A stretch of DNA of 63,030 bases from an uncultured bacterium (GCA_964606385.1 CAZSFZ010000012.1:1-63030), one strand, 5' to 3'; numbered from the stretch's first letter, positions 50,290-63,030 are shown. A program made the numbers and translations. The notes: generated from the sequence alone by a model not told the origin.

Positions 50290-50363
50290 AAAAAACCGCC
50301 ACTGACTTTTTCGTCAGATGGCGGCCCGACCATCGCTTGCTCTCCGGAAATTTTCCCGGACCC
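50290..50363 (-). promoter_or_regulatory. Probable nhaA-I/DUF1646-like Na+/Li+ riboswitch with overlapping intrinsic terminator
   Basis: Minus strand GGGT-CCGG(hairpin)CCGG-AGA-GCAAGC-GAT-GGTCGGGCCGCC, whose CCGCC is also the 5' arm of terminator CCGCCATCTGAC-GAAAAA-GTCAGTGGCGG-TTTTTT. Confidence 0.62.
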
Positions 50364-50562
50364 GTTTCAGATTTAGAGTCGCATTTTGTCCTGTTCCCTC
50401 AAGAAGGTCAAGCGTTATCGGCAGCTTGAGTGCTCAGCTGACCTGGGGGTCAGGCTCGTCTCAATTCCCAAGATGGCTCCCCCGGATGGGCTACAGCAAA
50501 CTGATTGTAAACTCGGCCCCGCACGCAGGAAGGCATCGGTTTCATACTGATTAAGGGTAAAA

Positions 50563-50600
50563 TAAAAATGCCGAAGACCTGAAGGCCTCCGGCATTTTTT
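50563..50600. terminator. Bidirectional terminator, presumed original tRNA-Asn terminator
   Basis: AAAAATGCCG-AAGACCTGAAGGCCTC-CGGCATTTTT directly beside the left att repeat. Confidence 0.8.
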
Positions 50601-50603
50601 ATA

Positions 50604-50615
50604 AATGGCTCCCCC
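50604..50615. repeat. att core, left junction
   Basis: AATGGCTCCCCC, antisense of GGGGGAGCCA(TT). Confidence 0.88.
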
Positions 50616-50711
50616 TGTTAGACGCATTTAAGAACCCTACTCCTGACTTCAAACTGATAATAAACGCATTAGGAGAGCAGTTCAAAAACACTTTCGTCCT
50701 TGCTGCTTAGC

Positions 50712-52523
50712 CTACTTGAACTTGGAAAGTTCCGTATAAACTTCCATGAAAAGGGGCGAACCCGTAAAGGACAAAGGGGACACTGGCCCAAAAAACATAA
50801 ATGGGAATTTACCGTTACTGCTAGGATCGATAAATGATTTGTATAATTGAATCGCTGAAGGATTGTTTACGAGCTCGGAAACCTTTTTCAATTCTGACCC
50901 TGAGGTGAGCCCATACCCGAATCCGAAAATGCGCATTTGTTTCAAAATTTCATCATTCAAAGATTCCAATGTTTGCGTGATAAACATGTAACCAATGCCA
51001 TATTTCCTTGTAGTTCTTACGGAATTGATGATTTCCCTTGTAAGTTCTTTTATTCTTTCGTCGAGCGCTCCCTCAGAGATAAATTTGTGCGCTTCATCCA
51101 TAACGATCAGGCAATTAGCCCGTTCGTTCTTGGCGTATAAATCAGCGCCAACTTCCACGACCTTGCACTCGATCACTTTTATAAACAATGCCTGCACATT
51201 CTCGTTCTCAATTTCACCTGCTTTTGCGCCACTAACATCCAATACGATAAAATTTCCCTTCTCTTTGACGATTTTATGCACTAAATCGTCCACAGACAGC
51301 TTAGTTTGTCCGGAAGCCTTTGTTTTCTTGAAGAAGTCTAAAGCGGCGTTCCATTTTTTGAGAACCGATGTCTGAGTAGCTAAATTAGCTAGTACCTCTT
51401 GGCATCGTCCGAGAAGTCGGTTTCTTGTTGCAGTCGTTCCATAAATCGCTTCAACGTATACCGTGAACGTTTTTCCTTGCCTCGTTTCATCTTGGCTTAA
51501 AGTAACAAAACGAGTAAGAAGATCCCTAAGCAATGCCGTGCTATCTGTAATGCTGTTCAGATTAAAGGAAGGGTTATTGGCTCTCCCGAAGAGATAATCC
51601 ACCACGGCATCGCGCGCCGCCTCTATTTTATCTTCCGTGTACATTGGCCGAAAAGCATCTTCAATGAAGCCAAGATTGGTAAGCAACTGTCCGAGAATTT
51701 CAAATTCTTTTCCCGGTAAATAGATGTCCGAAAGGATTTCGTACTTTGCGTACTTCATTCCCGCGGCAGTAATTCGAGTTTCCAGCTTTGTACCACCCGG
51801 AAGTAATTCTTGGTCGGAATAAAACTGCCTCTGGGGATCAAGAACAAGAATGCTCATGCTTTTCTTGTTTTTTGCGTAGCCCAAAAGAGTATAAGCAGCT
51901 GTTACGGTTTTGCCTGAACCGGTTTTACCAAAAATTCCTATATGATAAGCATCGCCAGCCCCCGCTTCCCGTATTGCTGGATCAGTTTTCCCAAAATGCT
52001 TGAACCAAAACGGTAAATCCACATCGGTGCCATAAACCTTCCCCATATAGGTAATCTCAGTTTCATGGGGCTTCATTAATGAAGTCATTACTTCATTAGT
52101 CATCTTACCAACTTTTTCTCCCGTAGAGGGGGAGGTTCCAAGGATGTATCCGATGGGCGCCGCATCATTCAGAGCATAACAGGCTTGGACACTGATGGTA
52201 GCAACACGGTTATCTGCCGTTCCGCTCAGATGCGGAAGTTTTCCATGCCGCTTAATTACGCCCTTAAAAGACGGATCTTCATGCCAACGGTTCTGTGTCT
52301 CAATTGAGATAATTTGCCCGATAACAAGAATGGGCCAGCCGTCTTCTTCTACAATGACATGAACCATTTGCCCCAATGCTCTTTGAGCCTTACTCTTTTC
52401 AGAAATATCTATCGTAATGTCAAGAGTAGTACTGGGCGAACCCGTGATTCCTAGGGTTGCGGTGCCCTCTTTCTTGATAATGTCGAGAAGCTCTTGGGAA
52501 ACAGTTTTCCGGGATTGTTCCAT
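50712..52523 (-). CDS. herA: HerA-family ATPase/helicase (HAS barrel + DUF87-type core)
   Basis: HIGIFGKTGSGKT, LIVMDEAHKF, RKYGIGYMFITQ; N-terminal GQMVHV..ILVIGQI. Confidence 0.88.
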   Translation of the reverse strand: MEQSRKTVSQELLDIIKKEGTATLGITGSPSTTLDITIDISEKSKAQRALGQMVHVIVEEDGWPILVIGQIISIETQNRWHEDPSFKGVIKRHGKLPHLSGTADNRVATISVQACYALNDAAPIGYILGTSPSTGEKVGKMTNEVMTSLMKPHETEITYMGKVYGTDVDLPFWFKHFGKTDPAIREAGAGDAYHIGIFGKTGSGKTVTAAYTLLGYAKNKKSMSILVLDPQRQFYSDQELLPGGTKLETRITAAGMKYAKYEILSDIYLPGKEFEILGQLLTNLGFIEDAFRPMYTEDKIEAARDAVVDYLFGRANNPSFNLNSITDSTALLRDLLTRFVTLSQDETRQGKTFTVYVEAIYGTTATRNRLLGRCQEVLANLATQTSVLKKWNAALDFFKKTKASGQTKLSVDDLVHKIVKEKGNFIVLDVSGAKAGEIENENVQALFIKVIECKVVEVGADLYAKNERANCLIVMDEAHKFISEGALDERIKELTREIINSVRTTRKYGIGYMFITQTLESLNDEILKQMRIFGFGYGLTSGSELKKVSELVNNPSAIQLYKSFIDPSSNGKFPFMFFGPVSPLSFTGSPLFMEVYTELSKFK

Positions 52524-52528
52524 GTGCC

Positions 52529-53737
52529 TTAAGTCCTATAGTTAAACAACAAGTTGAATTTACCCTTATCGATTTTTAAATCTTCTGAGAGCTTAATGGC
52601 TTCTTGAATAGCGAACATACCACCAGAGATACTTTTCGCCATGAGGTCTACTAAAAATTGAGGATAGGGTTCTCGGATTTCCGGGAAAACAATCTGCTTT
52701 TTAAGACTAAGCAAGCATGTCTCAAGCCTTTTTTGATCCAATGCGAGAGCTTTTTTCATTTCGATACGATAGGCTGGGCCATCTTGGTAAGGTTTAAAAT
52801 AAGTAAAATAAATCTCGGATTCTTTTTTCTTCAACGTAAAAACATCCTTTGTCCTTAGCGGATTAATTGCTTTCTTTAAAGCTTCATTAAGATCGTTCTT
52901 TTCTGGAATATTAAGATTGCAACGAATATGAAGATCGTCCCAAATTCGCTCTCTTTCATCCTGACTTTGACCCACTGGCAAAGGCTTTAGGTATTCATCT
53001 TCCGCCAAAGAAAGTGAAAAAAAAGTTCTATCATCCACCTTCACAGCGTGCTGAGCCAAGAAAGCATCCAAGACATCTCGTGAAGAGCTGTATTTGGCCA
53101 AAGCAATGATCTTTTCGTCATTAAAGGCCGCCTTGATAATTTCCGGTATATCGGGAATGATTTTCTCATAAGTTTCTTTTAAAAACTCACGGAGCGCATT
53201 CGCGTATTCCTGCGCAGAAGTGTTCTCATCTTCATTAGCGGATAGCATGCTGTTAATTTTTAAAAGTGGCGTAAAATGCGTTCCATCCATAATCCTAATT
53301 TCATGGCTTGCTCCAGCAAGAACGCTTAACTCCATCAGAAACATGATGCCTTGGCCCAAGCGAGCATTCGCTTCGTTGTGCGAAAGTGCCGTTTGCCACT
53401 GGTAATACTGATTTTTACCTTCTTCCCAACCCTTGTCTGTGTCCTCAGTTAAACCTTCCACCCCAACAGCAACGGCAAGTAAAAGATCGCTTCCTGTCAT
53501 TTTTTCAATAATTATACTTCCGTCAACAGCAACCAAAGAGTTAGAGAAAATATCGGTTTTTAGAATAGCGATTTTCCCAGTGTCCCGCAGTTCTCTAATT
53601 GCAGCCTGAATGGGTTCATCTTGGATATCAAACATTTTGTTCATTTTCTCAACTGTAACTGGAACATTATCCAAGATCTTGGCTAATAACTCGTCCGGAA
53701 GATATGCGTAGTTCCGTTGTTTTACCTCTTCGCTCAT
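52529..53737 (-). CDS. nurA: NurA-family nuclease
   Basis: LVAVDGS, IRIMDGT, ALAKYS, YPQFLVDLMAKS; ATG 53737 overlaps the upstream TGA. Confidence 0.82.
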   Translation of the reverse strand: MSEEVKQRNYAYLPDELLAKILDNVPVTVEKMNKMFDIQDEPIQAAIRELRDTGKIAILKTDIFSNSLVAVDGSIIIEKMTGSDLLLAVAVGVEGLTEDTDKGWEEGKNQYYQWQTALSHNEANARLGQGIMFLMELSVLAGASHEIRIMDGTHFTPLLKINSMLSANEDENTSAQEYANALREFLKETYEKIIPDIPEIIKAAFNDEKIIALAKYSSSRDVLDAFLAQHAVKVDDRTFFSLSLAEDEYLKPLPVGQSQDERERIWDDLHIRCNLNIPEKNDLNEALKKAINPLRTKDVFTLKKKESEIYFTYFKPYQDGPAYRIEMKKALALDQKRLETCLLSLKKQIVFPEIREPYPQFLVDLMAKSISGGMFAIQEAIKLSEDLKIDKGKFNLLFNYRT

Positions 53738-54891
53738 AAAGTTTCCTGAATTATATTTTTGCACTTACGAAGGTTGTAAAAGATTTGCCGTTTAAAAGAT
53801 TCCGCGTTAAAACGTTGGAAGTTTTCATTTTTTTGTATGCGTGGTAAAGCCCACCGGTTTTTCCAAAAGTCTGATAGCTCTTCAATGGTGCGATGGTGCC
53901 ACAAGGGCCTCACGTCATTTTGAATTACGTTCTTCAAATTTTTAGCGAAAGGGAAAATATAAAGGGCGCGTTTAACTCCGTGATCAACTCCGTTTGTAAT
54001 TCCTAATTTTTCTAATGCTTTGTCAATTAATCGCATTTTGCGAGAAGGCCCATTCCCAAAGCCCCGGTCTAGCTGACCATCTTCTTGTTCTAAAAAGGAA
54101 ACCATTTGCTCATAGAGCGTATTGGGAATGTGAAAGGAACCGCTGCCGTTTGTATAGCCAATAAATTCTGCGATTGGAAACCCCGCATATTTTAATCGAT
54201 TGTAAACACTGCTTTTGCCATAAGCCCCAGTAGTTGTTATAAACAGAAGCCGGGAAGGTAGGTTTCTTTCTTTGATAATAGTTTTTTGGTTCTTATATTT
54301 TTTTTCAAATGTTTCTCTTACGATCTCTGCTGTCATCAAGGAAGCAACAAGTTTTCCCCCGAGGATTGAATTATATGGAGGCAGTGCGCCTAAACGCTGA
54401 GCGCTCAAGGATTGATTTACCCAATAATCTCTTTCCTTATGCGTAATGCCTAAATGTTGATCCCGAACGCTCCAGCTTAAAATCGGGCTTTGAAGACCAA
54501 TTAAACCTATGGGCGCATTGTGGTAATCATCCCAAACAATGAATCGCATTTGGCGGCCGTAGGCCGGATCATAAGGCAAACTCCACCAGACTAAATTCCA
54601 CCAACGAAATAGATCTGCAGTACCTGTTTTTGAGTCTACTAATATTAGCCGGGGTTTTATATTTGCTACATTCAAATCACGGCCATTGAGAATTAGATTC
54701 TTATTTTTTTTTAGATATTCGCGGATAAATTCTTCATGAGAGACTATACGTTCTGCCTTGGCGAGGGAATGAACTGCTCTTCTTGATTGGCGGGTATCTT
54801 TTTTTAAAGTAAATCCGTTTTTCGCAAGCGAATAGCCTTGCTTTTCAACGAGAAAGCGTAATTTCTTTTTTAGACTTGCAGCAGCTATCAT
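53734..54891 (-). CDS. DUF4338 / Druantia DruA-like protein
   Basis: WSLPYDPAYGRQMRFIVWD, IGLIGLQSP, RD..LG, RLGALPPYNSILGGKLVA, LFITTTGAYGKSSVYNRL, GYTNGSGSFH. Confidence 0.8.
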   Translation of the reverse strand: MIAAASLKKKLRFLVEKQGYSLAKNGFTLKKDTRQSRRAVHSLAKAERIVSHEEFIREYLKKNKNLILNGRDLNVANIKPRLILVDSKTGTADLFRWWNLVWWSLPYDPAYGRQMRFIVWDDYHNAPIGLIGLQSPILSWSVRDQHLGITHKERDYWVNQSLSAQRLGALPPYNSILGGKLVASLMTAEIVRETFEKKYKNQKTIIKERNLPSRLLFITTTGAYGKSSVYNRLKYAGFPIAEFIGYTNGSGSFHIPNTLYEQMVSFLEQEDGQLDRGFGNGPSRKMRLIDKALEKLGITNGVDHGVKRALYIFPFAKNLKNVIQNDVRPLWHHRTIEELSDFWKNRWALPRIQKNENFQRFNAESFKRQIFYNLRKCKNIIQETL

Positions 54892-55006
54892 TTATTACCT
54901 AACATTTGAATCTGTAATTAGATAGCGAATTATACTACTATTATTGGTGCAGACCCATGATTTTCCAATCCATGGGTTCTTTTTCAAAGAGGAAAATATC
55001 AATAGA

Positions 55007-55978
55007 TCAACCCTTGTGCGGAACCGCTTTTTGAAACAAAATTCGGTTGTTCCGGGTTGCCCAAAAGGCTTGCTGACGCTGACCATCGGTAAAGCAAGCG
55101 TAGTGCTCAGGCGAAGATAAAACTACCGAATAGGCGCTCCGAGTTAACTGTTCCGCCTGCAGGACGATCCACCAATAGGACTTCCAGATCGTATCCCCAT
55201 CCCCCAAATCCTTCAGATGGTCCAAGCGAGACTTGAGAAAGAAAATATTGTTAATGATCGCAGCCGCCTTACTCGGCGACAAGAGCTTGGGCTGGTCCTG
55301 AGGCCAGAAACACTTGATCCGGGATAGAAAATATTCTTTCTGCCGCCCTTCCGGTGAGCAGATAAGCGCCTCCAGTGCCAGAATGAAGCAAGTCAACCGG
55401 TGCCGAATGTCGTATTCTTGCAACCCACGACAAAAAAGATCCACCCCTTCCATGAAACGCTTGCTTCGATCACAAGCCTCCTTACCGCAATGCAATGGGA
55501 TCAGCTTAGCTGCGAAATCGGTCCACCGGTAAAAGATCTCTCGGGTCAAAGGACGATCATTCTTGCCGGAGCCTTCTGTGTCGAACCAGCCAGACTCTTT
55601 AAAAGACTCACTAAGCTGCCAAATCCCGCTCTCAAGGCGGCTATACAAGAAATAAGCCTCTAGGTGACACCCAAAAGAAAAGGCGATCTTAAGGGCCTGC
55701 CAGTAGTCAGAAGGCCAAGAAAGCGCCTTTCCATCATCAGGGATATCCTTTTCAACCGTTACGACCCATTGGCGCGTATGGCAAAAAGAATCAACATGCT
55801 GCTCCCATCCCCGTGTTCCCAGCCGGGCCTTCCACTCTTCGCGCGCGAAGGGCGCCATGAAAGCATCTATGTCTTTAACAAAATCGATCGACACACCCGG
55901 GGCAACGTCAAAATGGTCTGCTCCGGTCTCGTTTGGCGCGTCAGTCTGTATAATTAAAAGTCCGATCGCTTTATTCAT
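55007..55978 (-). CDS. HEPN (ApeA/Apea-like C-terminal) domain protein
   Basis: RLTCFILALEALI ... IFFLKSRLDH; the HEPN Rx4H position reads KSRLDH. Confidence 0.5.
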   Translation of the reverse strand: MNKAIGLLIIQTDAPNETGADHFDVAPGVSIDFVKDIDAFMAPFAREEWKARLGTRGWEQHVDSFCHTRQWVVTVEKDIPDDGKALSWPSDYWQALKIAFSFGCHLEAYFLYSRLESGIWQLSESFKESGWFDTEGSGKNDRPLTREIFYRWTDFAAKLIPLHCGKEACDRSKRFMEGVDLFCRGLQEYDIRHRLTCFILALEALICSPEGRQKEYFLSRIKCFWPQDQPKLLSPSKAAAIINNIFFLKSRLDHLKDLGDGDTIWKSYWWIVLQAEQLTRSAYSVVLSSPEHYACFTDGQRQQAFWATRNNRILFQKAVPHKG

Positions 55979-56008
55979 GCGGGCGCTCTCGAATTAACTG
56001 GGGGAGGA

Positions 56009-56587
56009 TTATATAATTTTCAGCTTACTAAGTATCAACAAAAGAAGATAGATGCTGCCAAGAATAAGGGCGATTTTAATAAGGGCGTCCTTTGAAGACG
56101 CAACATCCTTGATGAATTTGAGCAGCTTCAGGGTCGTAGGCTTGAGTGATTCGTCGATCGCAGAGCTGAGCGATTTCAGTATCACTGGCCGTTCACCGAG
56201 ATAACGAATAAAAATAAATAGCGCAACAAGAATAAATACTGCTAAAACCATTCGAGGAGAAATCTCCAAAACTTCAAATATTTTGCGAGCTTTTTCCCTT
56301 CTGCCTCGGTAGGCTTCCAAAGACATATTATTGCGTTTAGCGTTCAGAGAATCCTTGGCTATGTCTTCTTTGGCGAAAACGTCATATATGTTTTCGTTTT
56401 GTCGAATCGCAGGCGGGGTTACCGCTGCCTCAGACCCTTCAATCGCGGGTTGAAGACCAAAGAAATGTTTAGCAATGCGTTCTTCCCCAAAGCTGGAGGA
56501 AATAATTAGCAGGCAAAAAAAGACAGCCCCGAGCGTCCATAAAACGTAAAAGAATTTTTTGTGCTTGGTTAGGAAGGGATCGGTCAT
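56009..56587 (-). CDS. Hypothetical membrane protein
   Basis: Three hydrophobic segments; start placed at MTDPFL, overlapping the upstream stop. Confidence 0.55.
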   Translation of the reverse strand: MTDPFLTKHKKFFYVLWTLGAVFFCLLIISSSFGEERIAKHFFGLQPAIEGSEAAVTPPAIRQNENIYDVFAKEDIAKDSLNAKRNNMSLEAYRGRREKARKIFEVLEISPRMVLAVFILVALFIFIRYLGERPVILKSLSSAIDESLKPTTLKLLKFIKDVASSKDALIKIALILGSIYLLLLILSKLKII

Positions 56588-57057
56588 ACGCCCCTTGTCA
56601 AAATCGCCTGCTCTCCAAAAGTCTGTTTTACCCTTTTGGAGAATTTGAAATACAAAAACCAAACAGAGGCTGTAAACACGGTCATAATCCTGCCGATAAT
56701 GAAATTGCTTAATGCACCATTTGAGGGGATAGTCTTAGTAAATACTAAAAAGAAACAAGCTGTCAGGGAAAGCGTGCAAGCAATCACGCCGAAAAGGAGT
56801 ACCCGCTTCGCTTGGCACGCCGCAGTGGGTTTAAGTTTGAACAATCGATAGGCAACTATGAGCTGGAAAGCGCCATACCCCATAATCGCTACCGCATCTA
56901 GCATGAGATAGGTCATCATGACTGACCATGATTTTGAAAGCACCAAATCGTTGAGCAAAGATCCGCTGCGAAAAAAATTCAATATCCCGCCTAAACCACA
57001 TACAAAGACAAAAAAAGCAAGCCATCCACCAATATGCGTATAACGTACTTCGTTCAT
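56584..57057 (-). CDS. DUF2569-like membrane protein
   Basis: IGGWL at N-terminus; W..YF..SKRVK.TF at C-terminus. Confidence 0.75.
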   Translation of the reverse strand: MNEVRYTHIGGWLAFFVFVCGLGGILNFFRSGSLLNDLVLSKSWSVMMTYLMLDAVAIMGYGAFQLIVAYRLFKLKPTAACQAKRVLLFGVIACTLSLTACFFLVFTKTIPSNGALSNFIIGRIMTVFTASVWFLYFKFSKRVKQTFGEQAILTRGV

Positions 57058-57089
57058 GACGTCCTCCTTCGCCTCGGATGCGTATGGCG

Positions 57090-57569
57090 CTACTGAAATA
57101 TCTTTTTATTTGGATCTTGGATATTTGATTCGGTGTAGATGTAATTGCGCATAGACTTGAAAATCTCTTGCGGCCAGCTCTTCTCGGTCATATCGCCCCA
57201 GAAACCAAGATCTTTTGACCCTTGAACAAGGATCTTTACGGAGCTGCCATCCGGCTCCTCTTTGATGTAAACGCCTGCGACAATGTTCCAATCGTATTTC
57301 GTCATTCCGTGTTCCCCGATCGCAACGGCTTCATCGTAGTTGGCTCTCTTGATTGTAAAACCGGCATCGGAAAGCCCAGATTTGGCAGCAAGGTAGGCGG
57401 TGCGCTTATCGACACCCTTCAGAAAAAAAACTTCTTCATACTTCGACCAACCGGTTCGGCCCTCATTGGCCGGATTAAAATTGACGTTTCGCGCAGATTG
57501 GGGCATGGAATTGATTGAGGTACAGCCGGTGAGCAAAATAAGCGAAAGTAAAAAAAGCGTGCTTTTCAT
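57090..57569 (-). CDS. Lipoprotein of unknown function
   Basis: Lipobox LLTGC. Confidence 0.75.
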   Translation of the reverse strand: MKSTLFLLSLILLTGCTSINSMPQSARNVNFNPANEGRTGWSKYEEVFFLKGVDKRTAYLAAKSGLSDAGFTIKRANYDEAVAIGEHGMTKYDWNIVAGVYIKEEPDGSSVKILVQGSKDLGFWGDMTEKSWPQEIFKSMRNYIYTESNIQDPNKKIFQ

Positions 57570-57580
57570 GTAGGAATTTT

Positions 57581-57640
57581 ACCATCTATGGATGGTTTTT
57601 GGAAGAGCTGCAAGATCCCATAATACCATCCATGGATGGG
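57581..57640. promoter_or_regulatory. Paired palindromic operators in the lipoprotein/XRE divergent promoter
   Basis: ACCATC-TATG-GATGGT (57581-57596) and ACCATC-CATG-GATGGG (57625-57640; covers the XRE ATG). Confidence 0.65.
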
Positions 57641-57853
57641 TACATTTGTCGCAAGCTGGGAAAGCGGATAAGAGAACTAAGGGATAAGCATGACCTTACT
57701 CAAGAAGAGCTGGCTGCACGTGCAGATATTAGCTTGAAGTACCTTCAAAATCTTGAAGGGAAAAATCCAAAGAAAGCCACCGTCGTTACTTTAAGCAAGC
57801 TTGGAAAAGGTTTCGGTCTTCCTCTTTGGAAGTTTCTAAAATTCCCTCAGTAA
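57632..57853 (+). CDS. XRE-family HTH regulator (C-protein-like)
   Basis: LGKRIRELR..HDLTQEELAARADISLKYLQNLE. Confidence 0.9.
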   Translation: MDGYICRKLGKRIRELRDKHDLTQEELAARADISLKYLQNLEGKNPKKATVVTLSKLGKGFGLPLWKFLKFPQ

Positions 57854-58160
57854 GCAGGTTAATTCTTTCCTCAAGATCCATTGGGCTAACCGTAGGTTCC
57901 GAATTTGCTAGAGATCCCATCCTTATTTCACTCTCGTTGTACTGAGGCGGTTTCCCCCAACCCCGATCCAGCAATGCGAGAGATGCCTGAATACGTGCCG
58001 CTTTAGTCGATTTCGGATCGTTCATGATCTCGACCAACGTGTTGATAGCCGCTTCTGTGTGCTCCCTCGCCTTATCCCTGATCGTTATGGCTACCTTAGG
58101 ACGTCCATTCGGATTACCCGATTGTCCCGGTTTAAACATTCCTGCGTGTCTATTCTCCAT
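57786..58160 (-). CDS. DUF5681-domain protein (terminase small-subunit-like N-terminus)
   Basis: FKPGQSGNPNGRPK; LLDRGWGKP; GGAGG RBS before ATG 58160. Confidence 0.75.
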   Translation of the reverse strand: MENRHAGMFKPGQSGNPNGRPKVAITIRDKAREHTEAAINTLVEIMNDPKSTKAARIQASLALLDRGWGKPPQYNESEIRMGSLANSEPTVSPMDLEERINLLTEGILETSKEEDRNLFQACLK

Positions 58161-58228
58161 TGTCCCCACCTCCATGGATATTCTATACTAGTACATTAAA
58201 TTCTTGGATAAGAAAGATGTGGTGATTA

Positions 58229-58864
58229 GTGGAAAAAGGCAATGAGAGATTCGACAGAGAACAGGCTGAGAGAAAACAGGCTTGGGACATACTCCAAAAC
58301 ATCCCTGAATTTATAGCAGACCGTAAAAAAGCCAGTGAATTTAATAAAATCAAAGACCAAAACAAAATCAAACAACTGAAAAAGAAATGGGGCTTTTATC
58401 CTCTAGAAGATATTTTAGAATTCACTGACGCCTTTTCAAAATACTCGGTCATAGCGAATCGGTGGGGAAAAGCAGTCGATTTCCATGGCGTAGATATGTT
58501 TTCATTAAACGCTTCTGAGCAATTGGTTGCCCCCGAAGGAAGTCCATGCAAGGGCAAATCCCTCCTTCATAAAATCGATGTCACCATCGATATAACAAGA
58601 TCGGACAGCGCTATTTTGGATGAATTAAGAACAGGAATTGATAGCATACGACGCATTTTTAAAACAAAAATAACGCCAAACAAAAAGCATGACCATTTGG
58701 AATTCTTGATAGGTTTATTGATCGGCATCGGTCTAACAGACGCTGAAATACACGAGCGGCTCACGCCACGCAAGCTATTAAAGCTTGCCTATGATCATGG
58801 GCAGCGAAAATCCCACCGAGAAAAAATTCAAGAACGGTTGAAAACTAGGCGGAAAAAAGTTTAA
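58229..58864 (+). CDS. Hypothetical protein
   Basis: 211-aa open frame; no recognised motif. Confidence 0.5.
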   Translation: MEKGNERFDREQAERKQAWDILQNIPEFIADRKKASEFNKIKDQNKIKQLKKKWGFYPLEDILEFTDAFSKYSVIANRWGKAVDFHGVDMFSLNASEQLVAPEGSPCKGKSLLHKIDVTIDITRSDSAILDELRTGIDSIRRIFKTKITPNKKHDHLEFLIGLLIGIGLTDAEIHERLTPRKLLKLAYDHGQRKSHREKIQERLKTRRKKV

Positions 58865-58914
58865 TTTCTTTCCGCTCCACAGCAGCATTCCTTGCCATTT
58901 AAGATTGTCGCATT

Positions 58915-59244
58915 ATGGAAAACGCGGCAATCAACTTATCAGATATTCAGATCATTCCAATCAAGCCTCGCGATGGCCTTTTGGCCTTCGTATCTTTCCT
59001 ACTTAATAGCCAGTTTTTCTGCGGGAATATAGCTATTCACTCCCGCCCTGATGGCAATCTCAGACTTGTTTATCCGCAAAAACTTCTTCCGAATGGAAAA
59101 ACCATTAACTGTTTTCATCCCGTGGATCAGCAGGTAGCAAATACAGTTTTAGAACAGGTTTCAGATGCTTATCTGCACCTTATTTCAAAATGTGGCCAAA
59201 ATGCGACTATTTGTGAGGATCGAGATGAGACCCTTCGAAAATAA
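58915..59244 (+). CDS. SpoVG-like nucleic-acid-binding protein
   Basis: IQIIPI..GLLAFVSF.L...F....IAI....DG.L.LVYP......FHPV pattern. Confidence 0.7.
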   Translation: MENAAINLSDIQIIPIKPRDGLLAFVSFLLNSQFFCGNIAIHSRPDGNLRLVYPQKLLPNGKTINCFHPVDQQVANTVLEQVSDAYLHLISKCGQNATICEDRDETLRK

Positions 59245-61195
59245 TCCCCCATTGAAACCGCAGCACACCACGAACAGCGCAAATATTCCTGAGGAATTGA
59301 AAAAGCTCTCTCAATGGGTCGGCTTCAATTTTGAGTGGGATGCAAAAAGAAAGAAGTGGAAAAAAGTTCCATATCAAACCAATGGAAGACGGGCCAGCAC
59401 AACAAATCCGACGCATTGGAGTTCCTACAAAGAAATTGAATTTTACGCATGCTCTCTTGAAGCTGCCGATGGAATCGGTTTTGTATTTACATCAAAAGAT
59501 CCTTATTGCGGGATTGATTTAGACCATTGCGTTGATCCTACAACTAAAGAAATTTCATCATGGGCACTTAAATGGATCGAGCTATTTTCATTTTCAGGCG
59601 CTTACATGGAATATTCGCCATCTGGCACGGGGATCAAAATTTTCACAAAAGCAAAACTTCCATTCCATGGCCGAAAAAACGGCGACATAGAAATATACGA
59701 TCAGGCGCGCTATTTCACGGTTACTGGGAACGTATACGGATTATGTCAAAAAGAAATCCCAAACCAGCAAGCTGCTGTGGACCAACTCCTCGATGAGGTT
59801 TTCAGTAACCAGCCTAAAACAACCACTAATAAAATCGCGCCACTGAGCGGCAATGAATTAACGAGCGAAGAACTCAACTTGCTCATCCAAAAAGCTAAAA
59901 AAGCAGAAAATGGTGAAAAATTTTTAAAACTTTTTAACGGTGATTATGAGGATTATCACAAATCACAATCGGAGGCTGATGCCTCACTGTGTACCATGTT
60001 CGCCTTTTACACGGACTGCAATGAAATGGCGATTGATCAGTTGTTTCGAGAATCACATTTATACCGTGAAAAATGGGAGCGACCTGATTATCGGACCGGG
60101 ACAATCAGAAATGCTATCGATTTCTACAAAAAATCAAGAAACAAGCTGTTCGCTGACAGCATTGTTTCGCCAGACAAATCCCACCTCGAAAATGTTGAGC
60201 CTTTACCTCTTATCCACATAGTAGATGTAGAAGAAAAGGACTTAGAATTTCTAGTCGAAGGTTTGTGGGTTCTTGACAGTGTTGGCTTTATTTCTGCTCA
60301 GCCCAAATCTGGAAAAACATGGCTTTCGTTGGAAATTGGGATTAGCGTTGCTTCAGGCACAAACGCCTTCGGCCATTTTCCATCCAAGCGAGGAAAGGTT
60401 ATCGCGTTTAACGCGGAAGATGATCCCGCACGAGGTACGCGCCAACGCATAGCCGGTCTTTGCGCATCCAAAAAGCTGGCTCTCAAAGACATCGATTTTC
60501 ATCTTATCAATGTTCCTTCACTACTAATCGACGATACGGAGACACAAAAGCGGATTGAAAAAACTGTTAGTGATCAAAAACCCGCCCTTATCATTCTCGA
60601 TCCTCTCTTTAACTTGCATTCCAAGGATGAAGACAAATCCAAAGAATTATCAGAAATATTACATTTCTTACGTCTACTAAATCGCACTTACAAGTGTTCG
60701 ATTCTGCTTGTTTGCCATGATAAAAAACCATCTGGCAACAAGAATCAATCTACGCGACGAGAATCTCAAACGCGAGGATCAAATTCTTTGGAAGGTTGGG
60801 CCGACAATCTTATTTTTGTTGATGATGAAGACAAAACTAACGCGATTTCAAGAGTATACATACGCCACCGAAACGCACCGCTGACAGAGCCTTTTTACTT
60901 CCAGCTCCTTACGGAAACCCAAGATAAGAAAATTAAAGTAGCCGCTCTCCATAAAATGGATTCACAAGGTCTATTGTTTCAAAAAGATCTTAAGCTCCAA
61001 CAAATTATTACAACTGCTATGAGCGGAAAAGGCGCCATGCGAAGAGATGACCTCCGCAGCCAATTAAAGATTAGAAAAAACGATTTCGATGTAGCTTTTA
61101 ACGCAATGATTTGCTCCGGAGAAATCATTGAACTTGTTGATGAAAAAGATAAAAGAAAAAAGCGGTATCAATACCGGAGTTCAACGGGAACTTGA
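59225..61195 (+). CDS. Primase-polymerase / RepA-type (AAA_25) helicase fusion
   Basis: KKVPY, GIGFVF, GIDLDHC, EYSPSGTGI, EIYD..RYFTVTG; SQSEAD..L, LYREKW; AQPKSGKT, IILDPL, RGSNSL. Confidence 0.88.
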   Translation: MRPFENNPPLKPQHTTNSANIPEELKKLSQWVGFNFEWDAKRKKWKKVPYQTNGRRASTTNPTHWSSYKEIEFYACSLEAADGIGFVFTSKDPYCGIDLDHCVDPTTKEISSWALKWIELFSFSGAYMEYSPSGTGIKIFTKAKLPFHGRKNGDIEIYDQARYFTVTGNVYGLCQKEIPNQQAAVDQLLDEVFSNQPKTTTNKIAPLSGNELTSEELNLLIQKAKKAENGEKFLKLFNGDYEDYHKSQSEADASLCTMFAFYTDCNEMAIDQLFRESHLYREKWERPDYRTGTIRNAIDFYKKSRNKLFADSIVSPDKSHLENVEPLPLIHIVDVEEKDLEFLVEGLWVLDSVGFISAQPKSGKTWLSLEIGISVASGTNAFGHFPSKRGKVIAFNAEDDPARGTRQRIAGLCASKKLALKDIDFHLINVPSLLIDDTETQKRIEKTVSDQKPALIILDPLFNLHSKDEDKSKELSEILHFLRLLNRTYKCSILLVCHDKKPSGNKNQSTRRESQTRGSNSLEGWADNLIFVDDEDKTNAISRVYIRHRNAPLTEPFYFQLLTETQDKKIKVAALHKMDSQGLLFQKDLKLQQIITTAMSGKGAMRRDDLRSQLKIRKNDFDVAFNAMICSGEIIELVDEKDKRKKRYQYRSSTGT

Positions 61196-61212
61196 TACCG
61201 GAAGTGCATTAT

Positions 61213-61245
61213 TTCCAGTACCCTCCCTTATAAAGGGTACTGGAA
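61213..61245. repeat. Perfect 12-bp inverted repeat downstream of the primase-helicase
   Basis: TTCCAGTACCCT-9 nt-AGGGTACTGGAA. Confidence 0.7.
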
Positions 61246-61322
61246 TACTATATAGAGGTAATCTCTTGAGAGAGGCTCTTAAAAAGCAATTGGGCTTTTG
61301 TTACGAGGAATGGGGCGCCTCT

Positions 61323-61454
61323 GTGAATTCGCAGGAATTAGACACCTCAGCCAATTCCTTATTGTCCTTTGTGTCCCTCCTCATGGAAACTGATCAAAAG
61401 AACGGATTCCAAGTCCTAAAATCATCCTTTAATCCTAAAGATCATAATGAATGA
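61323..61454 (+). CDS. Small hypothetical protein upstream of the recombinase
   Basis: GTG start; MNSQELDTSANSLLSFVSLLMETDQKNG..., the 3' part of ORF-track 61128..61454. Confidence 0.35.
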   Translation: MNSQELDTSANSLLSFVSLLMETDQKNGFQVLKSSFNPKDHNE

Positions 61455-61523
61455 CGAGCACCACTTATTTGCATAAAATAGATACTGCTAACAGAGTGAT
61501 AACAGTAAAGAAGCGGAGAAAAT

Positions 61524-63030
61524 GTGAAGGCTATCATCCTTGCCAGAGTTTCCACAGAAGAGCAAATGGTGGAAGGGCAATCCATCCCTGCCCAATTAGC
61601 CAAAGCCCGCCAATACGCTTCGCGCAAAAAACTTGATGTTAAAAGTGAGTACCAGTTTGATGAATCTTCCTTAAAAGATAAGCGCACGAAGTTCGAGCAA
61701 GTCACCGAGGAAATCCAGAAGGCTGCTGAGCCCATAGCGCTTATTGTGGAAACTATAGATCGACTGCAACGGAGCTTTAAAGAATCTGTCTCATTGGATA
61801 ATTTTCGAAAAGAAGGTCGCTTAGAAATTCATTTTATTCGCGAAAATCTTGTTATCCATAAAAGCTCCAATAGTTCCGAACTGACCCGATGGGATATCGG
61901 CGTTCTCTTTGCGCGAAATTTCGTCCTTCAAATCAGTGATAATGTTAAAAGAACCATTGAGCATAAGCTTAAGAATGGCGAGTATCCTTCGCGCGCACCT
62001 TATGGCTATTTAAACATCACCAATGAAGATGGCAAGAAATGGATAGCGCCTGATCCTTTAGCCTCCAAGATGGTAGCCAAAATTTATGAATGGTATGGCT
62101 GCGAATCATTTTCGATGGAAGATATCCGCGCGAAGTTAAAAAACGAATTTGGTCTTACTTTTAGCAAGGGTAAAATAGATTTTATTCTGAAAACGCCATT
62201 CTACTATGGTGAAATGCTCTTTGATGGGAAGTTGTATCCGCACAAGTACCAATCTATTATTTCCCGCCAAATGTGGGATAACGTGCAAAGCGTTAAGGCC
62301 GGCTTCCATAAGAAGCCATGCAAATTTGGTGGATTGCCTTATTTATACCGTGGCCTCTTAAGATGCAGCCATGATGGTCATTCTTTTACCCCGGAAAAGA
62401 AACGCAAGAAGAACGGGCGCGAATACATTTATTACCATTGCACCCAATATAGCGGGAACCACAATACGGCTTGGATCCGAGAAGAGGACATTACGCGGCA
62501 ACTTCAAGAGGTCATTTCGAATATTTCGATACCTGACGCCATTGCTGCCGAAATAAGCACTGCCTTGAAAGAATCGCATGAAGGCAAGAAAGAGTATTAC
62601 AACGAGGTTTATGAGGGCCTGCAGGCCGAATATAAGCGTTATGAGATGCGCTTAGAGAAGATATATGAGCATTTCTTGGATAACCAGATTTCGGAAGCAG
62701 AATACGCAAAGTACAGGAAACAGTACCGTACAAAGCAGGAAGATATACAGAGCAAACTAAACAATCTTCAACGCGCTGATGACAATTACTACGTTACAGC
62801 TACTTATGTTTTGAAGCTTGTCCAAAAAGCAGCTGATCTCTTTGAAAGTTCTGAACCTATTGTAAAACGGCAAATTGTGAAACTGTTACTTCAGAACTGT
62901 GAAGTAAAAGATGCAACTCTAGTCCCCACAATAAGAAGCCCCTTCCACATGTTCGTGAAAGGGGCTTCTCGTCTAGAATGGCTCCCCCGCCTGGGATCGA
63001 ACCAGGGACACTGCGGTTACGGTCTGACTT
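61524..63030 (+). CDS. Large serine recombinase (resolvase + recombinase + Zn ribbon + coiled coil); reads through att into antisense tRNA, no stop in window
   Basis: Absent from ORF track. GTG 61524 after GGAG; AIILARVSTEEQ, SIPAQ, DRLQR, APYGY, LLRCSHDG...YYHC; in frame with EWLPRLGSNQG at 62976 onward. Confidence 0.93.
   Translation, partial: MKAIILARVSTEEQMVEGQSIPAQLAKARQYASRKKLDVKSEYQFDESSLKDKRTKFEQVTEEIQKAAEPIALIVETIDRLQRSFKESVSLDNFRKEGRLEIHFIRENLVIHKSSNSSELTRWDIGVLFARNFVLQISDNVKRTIEHKLKNGEYPSRAPYGYLNITNEDGKKWIAPDPLASKMVAKIYEWYGCESFSMEDIRAKLKNEFGLTFSKGKIDFILKTPFYYGEMLFDGKLYPHKYQSIISRQMWDNVQSVKAGFHKKPCKFGGLPYLYRGLLRCSHDGHSFTPEKKRKKNGREYIYYHCTQYSGNHNTAWIREEDITRQLQEVISNISIPDAIAAEISTALKESHEGKKEYYNEVYEGLQAEYKRYEMRLEKIYEHFLDNQISEAEYAKYRKQYRTKQEDIQSKLNNLQRADDNYYVTATYVLKLVQKAADLFESSEPIVKRQIVKLLLQNCEVKDATLVPTIRSPFHMFVKGASRLEWLPRLGSNQGHCGYGLT
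62977..62988. repeat. att core, right junction
   Basis: AATGGCTCCCCC. Confidence 0.88.
62979..63019 (-). tRNA. trnN: 3' part (positions 36-76) of tRNA-Asn(GUU), interrupted at 35/36
   Basis: TAA-CCGCA-GTGTC-CCTGG-TTCGATC-CCAGG-CGGGGGA-G-CCA, exactly 41 nt; T arm perfect; G73 and acceptor end are Asn-like. The anticodon's first two bases are not visible, so identity is inferred. Confidence 0.75.

Follow-up and report, generated by a model that had tools for sequence, protein, structure and literature searches.

At the right-hand end of a 63,030-bp contig from an uncultured bacterium (GCA_964606385.1, CAZSFZ010000012.1:1-63030; the complete contig is analysed here and called the window) lies an integrated mobile element of 12,373 bp (50611-62983), inserted right at the 3' terminus of a tRNA-Asn gene that the contig end cuts. 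The element encodes a large serine recombinase (LSR), and its attP attachment (att) site is inside the LSR open reading frame (ORF): integration detaches the 3' end of the gene and gives the enzyme a new C-terminus. The detached segment survives at attL as an orphan tail, which in the window ends in FVLAA. A repeat search of the window returned the 12-bp direct repeat AATGGCTCCCCC at both borders (Table 1), and the G+C content falls from ~0.56 to ~0.42 at ~50500 and stays low from there to the window end. With one mismatch allowed, the 11-mer core has four matches against 1.6 expected, a count that is not significant by itself, and the validity of the att site therefore rests on context and comparison, namely a right flank that is a tRNA-Asn-type 3' exon and in-frame homologous attL tails in ~55 related loci.

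The recombinase starts with a GTG codon at 61524, with GGAG 8 nt ahead, and contains the Pfam domains Resolvase (PF00239, residues 3-153, E = 2e-14), Recombinase (PF07508), and Zn_ribbon_recom (PF13408). Ser10, the nucleophile, is invariant in alignments of 40 and 41 sequences, and the predicted fold matches the SPbeta-type, Bxb1, A118, and phiC31 integrases in Foldseek (E 1e-17 to 1e-10). In the model, the long helices 338-385 and 391-442 form a coiled-coil insertion between zinc-ribbon strands. A Resolvase domain with its serine, followed by Recombinase and zinc-ribbon domains with a coiled coil, is the composition of an LSR, and each of its catalytic, recombinase, zinc-ribbon, and coiled-coil parts ends before residue 488.

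What follows residue 488 depends on the state of the element. An initial annotation of this DNA had placed the att core within the LSR frame at the W-L-P codons, had let the integrated protein read on antisense into the tRNA, and had found 50616-50710 open in the same frame, for a joined protein of 519 aa whose stop abuts herA; frame translation agrees with it at every coordinate. The integrated frame reads TGG-CTC-CCC (62979-62987) and then RLGSNQGHCGYGLT up to the window end, through the tRNA-Asn-type 3' exon, with its stop codon past the contig end. The orphan segment adds 31 residues to the 488 of the recombinase, 519 aa in all, and its stop codon (50708-50710) lies 1 nt from the end of the minus-strand herA ORF at 50712. 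Crossover at any of the 12 identical core bases would yield the same product in the same frame.

On the minus strand, the right flank UAACCGCAGUGUCCCUGGUUCGAUCCCAGGCGGGGGAGCCA shows the closing part of an anticodon loop, then a T-arm, then an acceptor strand bearing A72 and G73, and last an encoded CCA, of which the TGG codon for Trp in the LSR is the antisense. ARAGORN called no complete tRNA here, for two reasons: the window stops within the gene, and the gene most likely holds a group I intron. That intron is probable by analogy: Rfam places a group I intron (RF00028, 56-69 bits) at the equivalent place in four relatives, in two of which (L035 and L055) ARAGORN calls tRNA-Asn(GTT) once introns are allowed. 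A further relative, L003, has the same 3' exon as the window and likewise no ARAGORN call. In the relatives' tRNA-Asn(GUU), the intron sits in the anticodon loop, apparently between U35 and U36, and default ARAGORN misses such genes. A tmRNA and a tRNA-Sec, considered as targets when ARAGORN found nothing, were dropped in favour of the intron-split tRNA-Asn.

The layout recurs across a family. A protein search with the rebuilt LSR returned 1321 homologues, most of them 484-500 aa long and ending in W-L-P plus antisense-tRNA peptides such as R-x-D-S-N. In a genome comparison set of 80 loci (LSR identity 40-65%), about 50 have the 3' end of a minus-strand tRNA inside the 3' end of the LSR gene, so placed that the invariant Trp codon overlies the CCA end. 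Their hosts include Patescibacteria (candidate phyla radiation, CPR), Omnitrophota, Chlamydiota, Babeliales, Gammaproteobacteria, and Dehalococcoidia, among others; tRNA-Asn(GTT) is targeted most often, with Gln, His, Arg, Tyr, Pro, Glu, and Trp tRNAs also used. A metagenome scan for close relatives found seven loci only. Tails at attL were located by direct-repeat searches upstream of each LSR and then with a tail hidden Markov model (HMM), which identified ~55 loci with an in-frame, conserved tail segment, always on the LSR strand and free of stop codons over 25-45 codons of AT-rich DNA.

The elements often form tandem arrays (L106 1-721 and 617-11459; L040; L067), and at array junctions the LSR of one element is fused in frame to the tail of the next, producing hybrid, attP-like full-length genes in the chromosome. 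Two different LSR types (L107 9580-9618; P0122, P0123) are followed by the same non-tRNA peptide, W-L-P-E-[AST]-Y-[SP]-x-T-T-[VL]-F, which suggests a common non-tRNA or decayed target flank in one host lineage.

The tails fall into three classes, the window's with A-F-[RK]-N-P-T-x-x-F, a second with F-R-T-[LFIV]-[DN]-W..I-K-x-E-L, and a third with L-F-[IC]-N-[RQK]-x-[IL]-E-F, all conserved over ~25 residues. In six groups of related tails, the proportion of differing synonymous sites (pS) is 0.36-0.94, near saturation, that of nonsynonymous sites (pN) is 0.04-0.38, and pN/pS is 0.12-0.54; the tails of the window and of L106 give 0.35-0.41. Purifying selection is seen both in codons 1-7 and from codon 8 to the end, where pN/pS is 0.16-0.54. 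Judged by this codon pattern, the tail is a selected protein segment, and since an orphan segment stays open and is conserved at the amino-acid level, the joined gene is presumably expressed and important. The C-terminal swap proposed for the window is thus borne out and proves to be conserved, and selected, across the whole LSR family.

The same stretch of DNA also serves as half of the attP site. Joining the attR-left to the attL-right sequence, locus by locus, gave 45 reconstructed attP sites; a scan of 40 of them for dyad symmetry showed a single peak at +4.5 from the T of TGG (0.39 vs ~0.25 elsewhere). In the window, this centre falls between T62983 and C62984 and, in the other core copy, between T50610 and C50611, inside the Leu codon. 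In a dozen attL sites (L006, L010, L011, L028, L031, L040, L052, L067, L072, L076, L107, and L110), the Trp position is not TGG (AAA, TTG, CGG, GGG, and others) and the match begins only at GCTCC, so that the crossover must lie rightward of TGG. The host tRNA genes at these loci, by their sequences, probably do not encode CCA and gain an encoded CCA from the element on integration.

The inner motif GAY stands at +15 in the P' and tRNA-side arms alike, and the outer motif GAAC, which in the tRNA belongs to the T-loop, is found at +20 in 31 of the 40 tRNA arms, compared with +25/+26 in 22 of the 40 P' arms. By comparison of sequences, the P' arm appears to mimic the tRNA T-arm with the outer motif 5-6 bp further out, as would be expected for the attP as against the attB half-site of an LSR. 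A zinc-ribbon-domain register shift between LSR attB and attP half-sites is known (PMC3783163), and the same 5-bp shift is described for phiC31 attB in a preprint (bioRxiv 10.1101/2025.05.02.651858). Compared in this way, a 12-bp core, one dyad centre at +4.5, and a shift in outer-motif register are the features of an LSR att site. At the protein level, the same DNA, GAC...GAAC, is the conserved tail start D-x-F-[RK]-[NT]. That one LSR family can use many tRNAs would be explained by the mimicry of the conserved T-arm in its attP.

We then turn to the C-terminal end of the tail. In an initial collection of 66 tails, the endings vary, but terminal Ala is enriched, at 16 of 66 against a crude background of 6%. 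A set restricted to the window's class (22 tails) was assembled from the contigs of two close relatives, word-indexed searches, and an exhaustive profile search of 1.84 billion representatives; the word-indexed searches with tail profiles gave few matches (P0121, P0126, P0127), and the exhaustive HMM search was the productive one. Eight of these 22 tails end in LAA and one each in LVA, MVA, IVA, and LIA, for a total of 12 with [LMI][AVI]A. The tail of L106, whose LSR is 74% identical to the window's, ends in TLAMVA, and that of L107 (68% identity) in GIPLAA. The variants LVA, MVA, IVA, and LIA resemble engineered ssrA variants.

When the 16 tails of 34-35 residues are right-aligned, position -1 is Ala and position -3 is Leu in 12 of 16 each (entropy 1.19 and 1.31 bits), the most conserved of the last 20 tail positions, whereas positions -4 to -9 vary freely (2.35-3.25 bits). 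The residues just ahead of LAA differ from tail to tail (FV, IS, IP, SD, SE, FA, WG, LP), the Leu codon of LAA is CTT in the window tail and TTG in that of L107, and an [LMIV][AVI]A ending is absent from all 36 integrated-form proteins. A conservation island at the extreme C-terminus that matches the ClpX tripeptide has the look expected of a genetically encoded degron. The initial annotation had expected a small, apolar tail end to be conserved in relatives; this holds within the window's class and fails for the family at large, and an LAA degron common to the whole family was rejected as the other tail classes end differently. In an AlphaFold2 model, the tail forms helices at 487-494 and 498-518 with a predicted local distance difference test score (pLDDT) of 55-76, and the last three residues score below 50; the modelled -LAA end may be exposed and accessible to a protease.

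We propose that the architecture works as follows. On the circular element, the last LSR codons would form the P arm of attP, the first ~8 tail codons the P' arm, and crossover would take place at T|C of the Leu codon that follows the invariant Trp. Integration detaches the tail and fuses the recombinase to codons read antisense from the tRNA. On excision, 62983 would be joined to 50611, closing a 12,373-bp circle with an intact 519-aa gene, and would put the tRNA back beside its own terminator hairpin (50568-50603). The episomal isoform, with its helical tail and -LAA, would be recognised by ClpX(P) and hence be short-lived or actively taken off DNA, the chromosomal isoform, ending in antisense-tRNA residues, would carry no tag, and the properties of the enzyme would record the integration state. 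We infer that excision happens, that ClpXP recognises the tail, and that a burst of integrase is followed by integration and clearance. A state-dependent stability switch, or ClpX-dependent removal from DNA, is the reading we prefer for the window's tail class, with good support from comparison of the tails.

We hold these parts with different confidence. That the LSR gene is built in this way is very probable; that the tail end acts as a degron is, on the strength of the aligned endings, a nearly balanced question that tips slightly towards no; and the best explanation taken whole, a self-splitting LSR with a selected tail and an episomal isoform whose -LAA is recognised by ClpX(P), is one towards which we lean, if only slightly. 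A more specific version, in which the 519-aa isoform would be competent for integration but ClpXP-labile and the chromosomal isoform stable and either inert or of other directionality, is tentative and on the whole unlikely.

Each component of this proposal has relatives among known systems. The initial annotation had cited mycobacteriophages in which an attP within the repressor gene serves to remove a tag, and this precedent is present in the BPs literature: in BPs and in clusters G, I, N, and P, integration removes ~33 C-terminal residues with an ssrA-like tag from the repressor, so that its episomal and chromosomal forms differ in stability and the short one is active and stable (Broussard et al. 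2013, as summarised in PMC4557955), and the BPs tyrosine integrase has a C-terminal proteolysis signal as well. The two systems share an attP within a coding sequence and a removed segment that ends in an ssrA-like tag, here FVLAA. They differ in that BPs splits a repressor and uses a tyrosine integrase, whereas here the LSR itself is split. The likeness to the ssrA tag lies in L-A-A at a free carboxylate after variable residues; the end described here is encoded in the gene instead of being added by tmRNA, and its recognition by ClpX is putative.

In Mx8, attP lies within the integrase gene, which on integration becomes a recombinant gene with another 3' end, so that the prophage makes an integrase with altered properties, IntP/IntX (Tojo 1996; Magrini 1999; reviewed in PMC6070905). 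An attP within the integrase gene and a new C-terminus upon integration are common to both; the Mx8 enzyme is, however, a tyrosine integrase with no degradation tag, and ours has only serine recombinase domains. The part replaced in Mx8 is reportedly much larger, at ~112 residues.

The ssrA islands of Dehalococcoides come closest in gene layout, with a CcrB-like DsiB gene that always overlaps att at its 3' end and has its stop codon outside the island (McMurdie et al. 2011, PMC3146451). These islands occur in tandem arrays, and the authors speculated that dsiB is complete only on the circle (PMC3146451). Both are LSR genes that cross att at the 3' end and stop outside the island. The Dehalococcoides target is the T-loop of tmRNA, and DsiB is accompanied by the small DsiA, whereas here the target is the acceptor/CCA end of a tRNA; compared by their descriptions, DsiB also differs in that no conserved tail, selection, half-site mimicry, or terminal tag is described for it. 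Among nine other island ORFs scanned with Pfam, a subset of the island's ORFs, there was no second resolvase domain.

With the integrases of A118/LI, phiC31, Bxb1, and SPbeta, our LSR shares domain order, fold, short att sites, a central dinucleotide, an imperfect dyad, and the register shift between attP and attB. In canonical serine integrases, attP is normally described as separate from the int gene, and most targets are protein-coding. Besides dsiB, the literature searches made here turned up no example of an attP inside a serine integrase gene, and a 2014 database paper stated that no targeting of tRNA genes was known for serine recombinases. The partial precedents of Mx8 IntP/IntX and Dehalococcoides dsiB make the idea less novel than the initial annotation implied; none of BPs, Mx8, and Dehalococcoides unites a serine recombinase, a tRNA acceptor-end target, a selected tail, half-site mimicry, and a conserved tag. 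The phiC31 integrase itself is implied to end in -VAA by the description of a linker in the methods of a preprint (bioRxiv 10.1101/2025.05.02.651858), which would be a further ssrA-like end in a serine integrase.

Several observations weigh against the degron as the purpose of the tail, or against the proposed cycle. An LAA-type end is missing from 10 of the 22 window-class tails; the tails are homologous, and the tripeptide counts are thus not phylogenetically independent; and part of the tail conservation is that of attP DNA, through the half-site motifs. Two other tail classes are without LAA and yet equally conserved, for which reason the tail must have a further, tag-independent function, which could be activity or directionality; the tag, for its part, could be a later addition or have a structural role. 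Confidence in the modelled tail is only moderate (the pLDDT given above), based on ~9 tail-bearing sequences. In the contigs searched, we found no read or contig with the predicted attP circle junction and no empty attB junction (Table 1); a 23-nt attP junction was absent from viral contigs, two Logan contigs from the same samples (SRR15237810, SRR15237811) cross attL straight into host DNA with no branch, and a search of 5.8 billion proteins returned no 519-aa protein, the best match being 84% identical. Neither a recombination directionality factor nor the ClpXP/ssrA system of the host lineage was identified. The Logan contig L115 (SRR15237811_1690) equals window positions 55553-62987, an independent assembly of the same element that stops 1 nt short of the att core's right edge; an attR/attP branch point was considered as the cause of the break at 62987 and left uninterpreted, as the attL side has no branch.

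The account that best survives beside ours makes the tail mainly an activity or directionality module, a helical extension behind the zinc-ribbon domain that is needed for or restrains attP x attB integration and whose loss on integration would alter what the enzyme can do, with -LAA as a cap or secondary feature; we regard it as possible but doubtful. The tail follows the last zinc-ribbon strands, and all three classes are conserved and under purifying selection with or without LAA. Its role could resemble that of the extreme C-terminus of phiC31 integrase, which the preprint places at the surface that binds the directionality factor (bioRxiv 10.1101/2025.05.02.651858); the altered Mx8 integrase stays active with changed specificity, and for dsiB, McMurdie et al. 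suggested full function only while the element is circular. A module of this kind does not, however, account for positions -1 and -3 being far more conserved than -4 to -9 in the window's class, nor for the last three residues being unstructured in the model, and the catalytic, recombinase, zinc-ribbon, and coiled-coil parts are complete without the tail.

Alternatively, -LAA may recruit ClpX as an unfoldase that dismantles the very stable integrase-DNA complex left after recombination on attL/attR over the tRNA, in place of setting the bulk half-life of the enzyme, which we consider improbable. By the geometry of the att sites, the integrating subunits would be the tagged isoform and would stay on the 3' end of the tRNA gene; LSR-attL complexes that are stable and autoinhibited are on record (9rah, among the Foldseek matches), and ClpX acts on the C-terminus of MuA in a parallel manner. 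From plain degradation, this role is inseparable by sequence. The remaining account, in which compaction merely happened to put attP at the gene end, the first tail codons persist as P' DNA, and the rest with its LAA is functionless, could draw on the coincidence of the GAC and GAAC motifs with the D-x-F-[RK]-[NT] codons and on the heterogeneous C-terminal ends across the family, but it is very improbable and already disfavoured by selection on codons 8-end outside the ~25-bp half-site with synonymous sites near saturation, by the length over which the ~55 tails stay open, and by a terminal tripeptide conserved amid variable neighbours and different Leu codons.

If the more specific version is true, with an episomal isoform that is competent for integration but ClpXP-labile and a chromosomal isoform that is stable and either inert or of other directionality, an LSR family spread across CPR, Omnitrophota, Chlamydiota, and Proteobacteria carries a protein-level memory of its integration state, which could partly replace a separate regulator or directionality factor. 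Directionality and timing are central open problems for serine integrases, in biology as in genome engineering, and here nature provides an enzyme that is altered by its own reaction, with two defined isoforms whose stability and activity can be compared directly. It also documents wide tRNA-gene targeting by serine recombinases, for which T-arm mimicry and a Trp codon over CCA are the suggested means, and the conserved terminal LAA may serve as a simple handle on state-dependent proteolysis in a system far smaller than a phage.

Table 1. Features of the element, its target, and related loci; positions refer to the window unless another locus is named
Feature	Position	Strand	Basis and remarks
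LSR, residues 1-488 up to W-L-P	61524..62987	+	Pfam and fold; integrated frame runs on to 63030
Orphan LSR 3' end: W-L-P, 31-codon tail LLDAFKNPTPDFKLIINALGEQFKNTFVLAA, TAG	50606..50710	+	Translation; homologous tails
attL core	50604..50615	+	12-bp direct repeat; predicted crossover dinucleotide T50610/C50611 (dyad centre, 40 rebuilt attP)
attR core	62977..62988	+	12-bp direct repeat; predicted crossover dinucleotide T62983/C62984 within Leu codon
P half-site of attP	62959..62983	+	Last LSR codons; GTC at -8 to -6 mirrors GAC at +15 to +17
P' half-site of attP	50611..50635	+	Overlaps tail codons 1-8; GAC +15, GAAC +26 from T of Trp codon
Predicted attP circle junction			...CGTCTAGAATGGCTCCCCCTGTTAGACGC...
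Predicted empty attB			...TTTTTTATAAATGGCTCCCCCGCCTGGGATCG...
3' exon of target tRNA, Asn(GUU)-type	62979..63019	-	UAA, anticodon-stem 3' strand, T-arm, acceptor CGGGGGA, G73, CCA
Last 11 nt (...AAGUCAGACCG), putative group I intron in anticodon loop	63020..63030	-	Analogy only
Group I intron-bearing targets in relatives	L002 9671-9935; L033 1701-1911; L035 19914-20105; L055 11495-11697		Rfam
Strong hairpin in LSR codons RSPF...KGAS, then UUAUU	62935..62969	-	~10-15 nt past tRNA CCA on the tRNA strand
Hairpin GCCGAAGACCTGAAGGCCTCCGGC with flanking A and T runs	50568..50603	.	Read from sequence; directly left of attL core
Cargo operon: HerA 50712-52523, NurA 52529-53764, DruA 53734-54891	50712..54891	-	Pfam, PADLOC; converges on tail ORF
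Primase/helicase-type replication gene	59165..61195	+	Pfam NrS-1 pol HBD, AAA_25, DnaB_C

Two hairpins bear on the fate of the target tRNA. The one directly left of the attL core appears, from its sequence, to be the native bidirectional terminator of the tRNA, moved by the insertion to the far end of the island. The other lies within the LSR codons and has a 16-bp stem (dG -33.6 kcal/mol, z = -4.75), with none of 200 shuffles folding as well; its complementary arms recur in L003 and L106, and a consensus terminator scan did not call it. With this hairpin (62935-62969), the element may supply a candidate replacement terminator for a tRNA whose own terminator was displaced.

A phage origin was considered and rejected: a scan of IMG/VR gave relatives of at most 28% identity, and close relatives are absent from viral contigs. 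The elements of this family are small non-phage islands. The window's cargo includes DruA (DUF4338), with a PADLOC match of 2.9e-94; DruA is known from Druantia, and its pairing here with HerA and NurA is possibly a defence module of unusual make-up. A primase/helicase-type module adjoins the LSR in the relative L106 as it does in the window. The host genes on the contig are ordinary (GroEL, GlgA, Alr, HflK).

A third exact copy of ATGGCTCCCCC lies at 50473-50483, 132 bp left of attL, and is followed by GGATGGGCTACAGC, which resembles a decayed tRNA 3' end; an Rfam scan of this region gave no match. The copy may have been left by an earlier insertion or may match by chance, and L106 has a degenerate fragment, TGGCTCCCCGGATTGGTCTAGAAC, after its LSR that is similar to the sequence beside this copy. 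On the host side of the insertion, Rfam reports a candidate nhaA-I RNA (a Na+ riboswitch candidate; 50316-50363, minus strand, 37.8 bits vs a gathering score of 37) upstream of the small minus-strand host gene that adjoins the insertion site.

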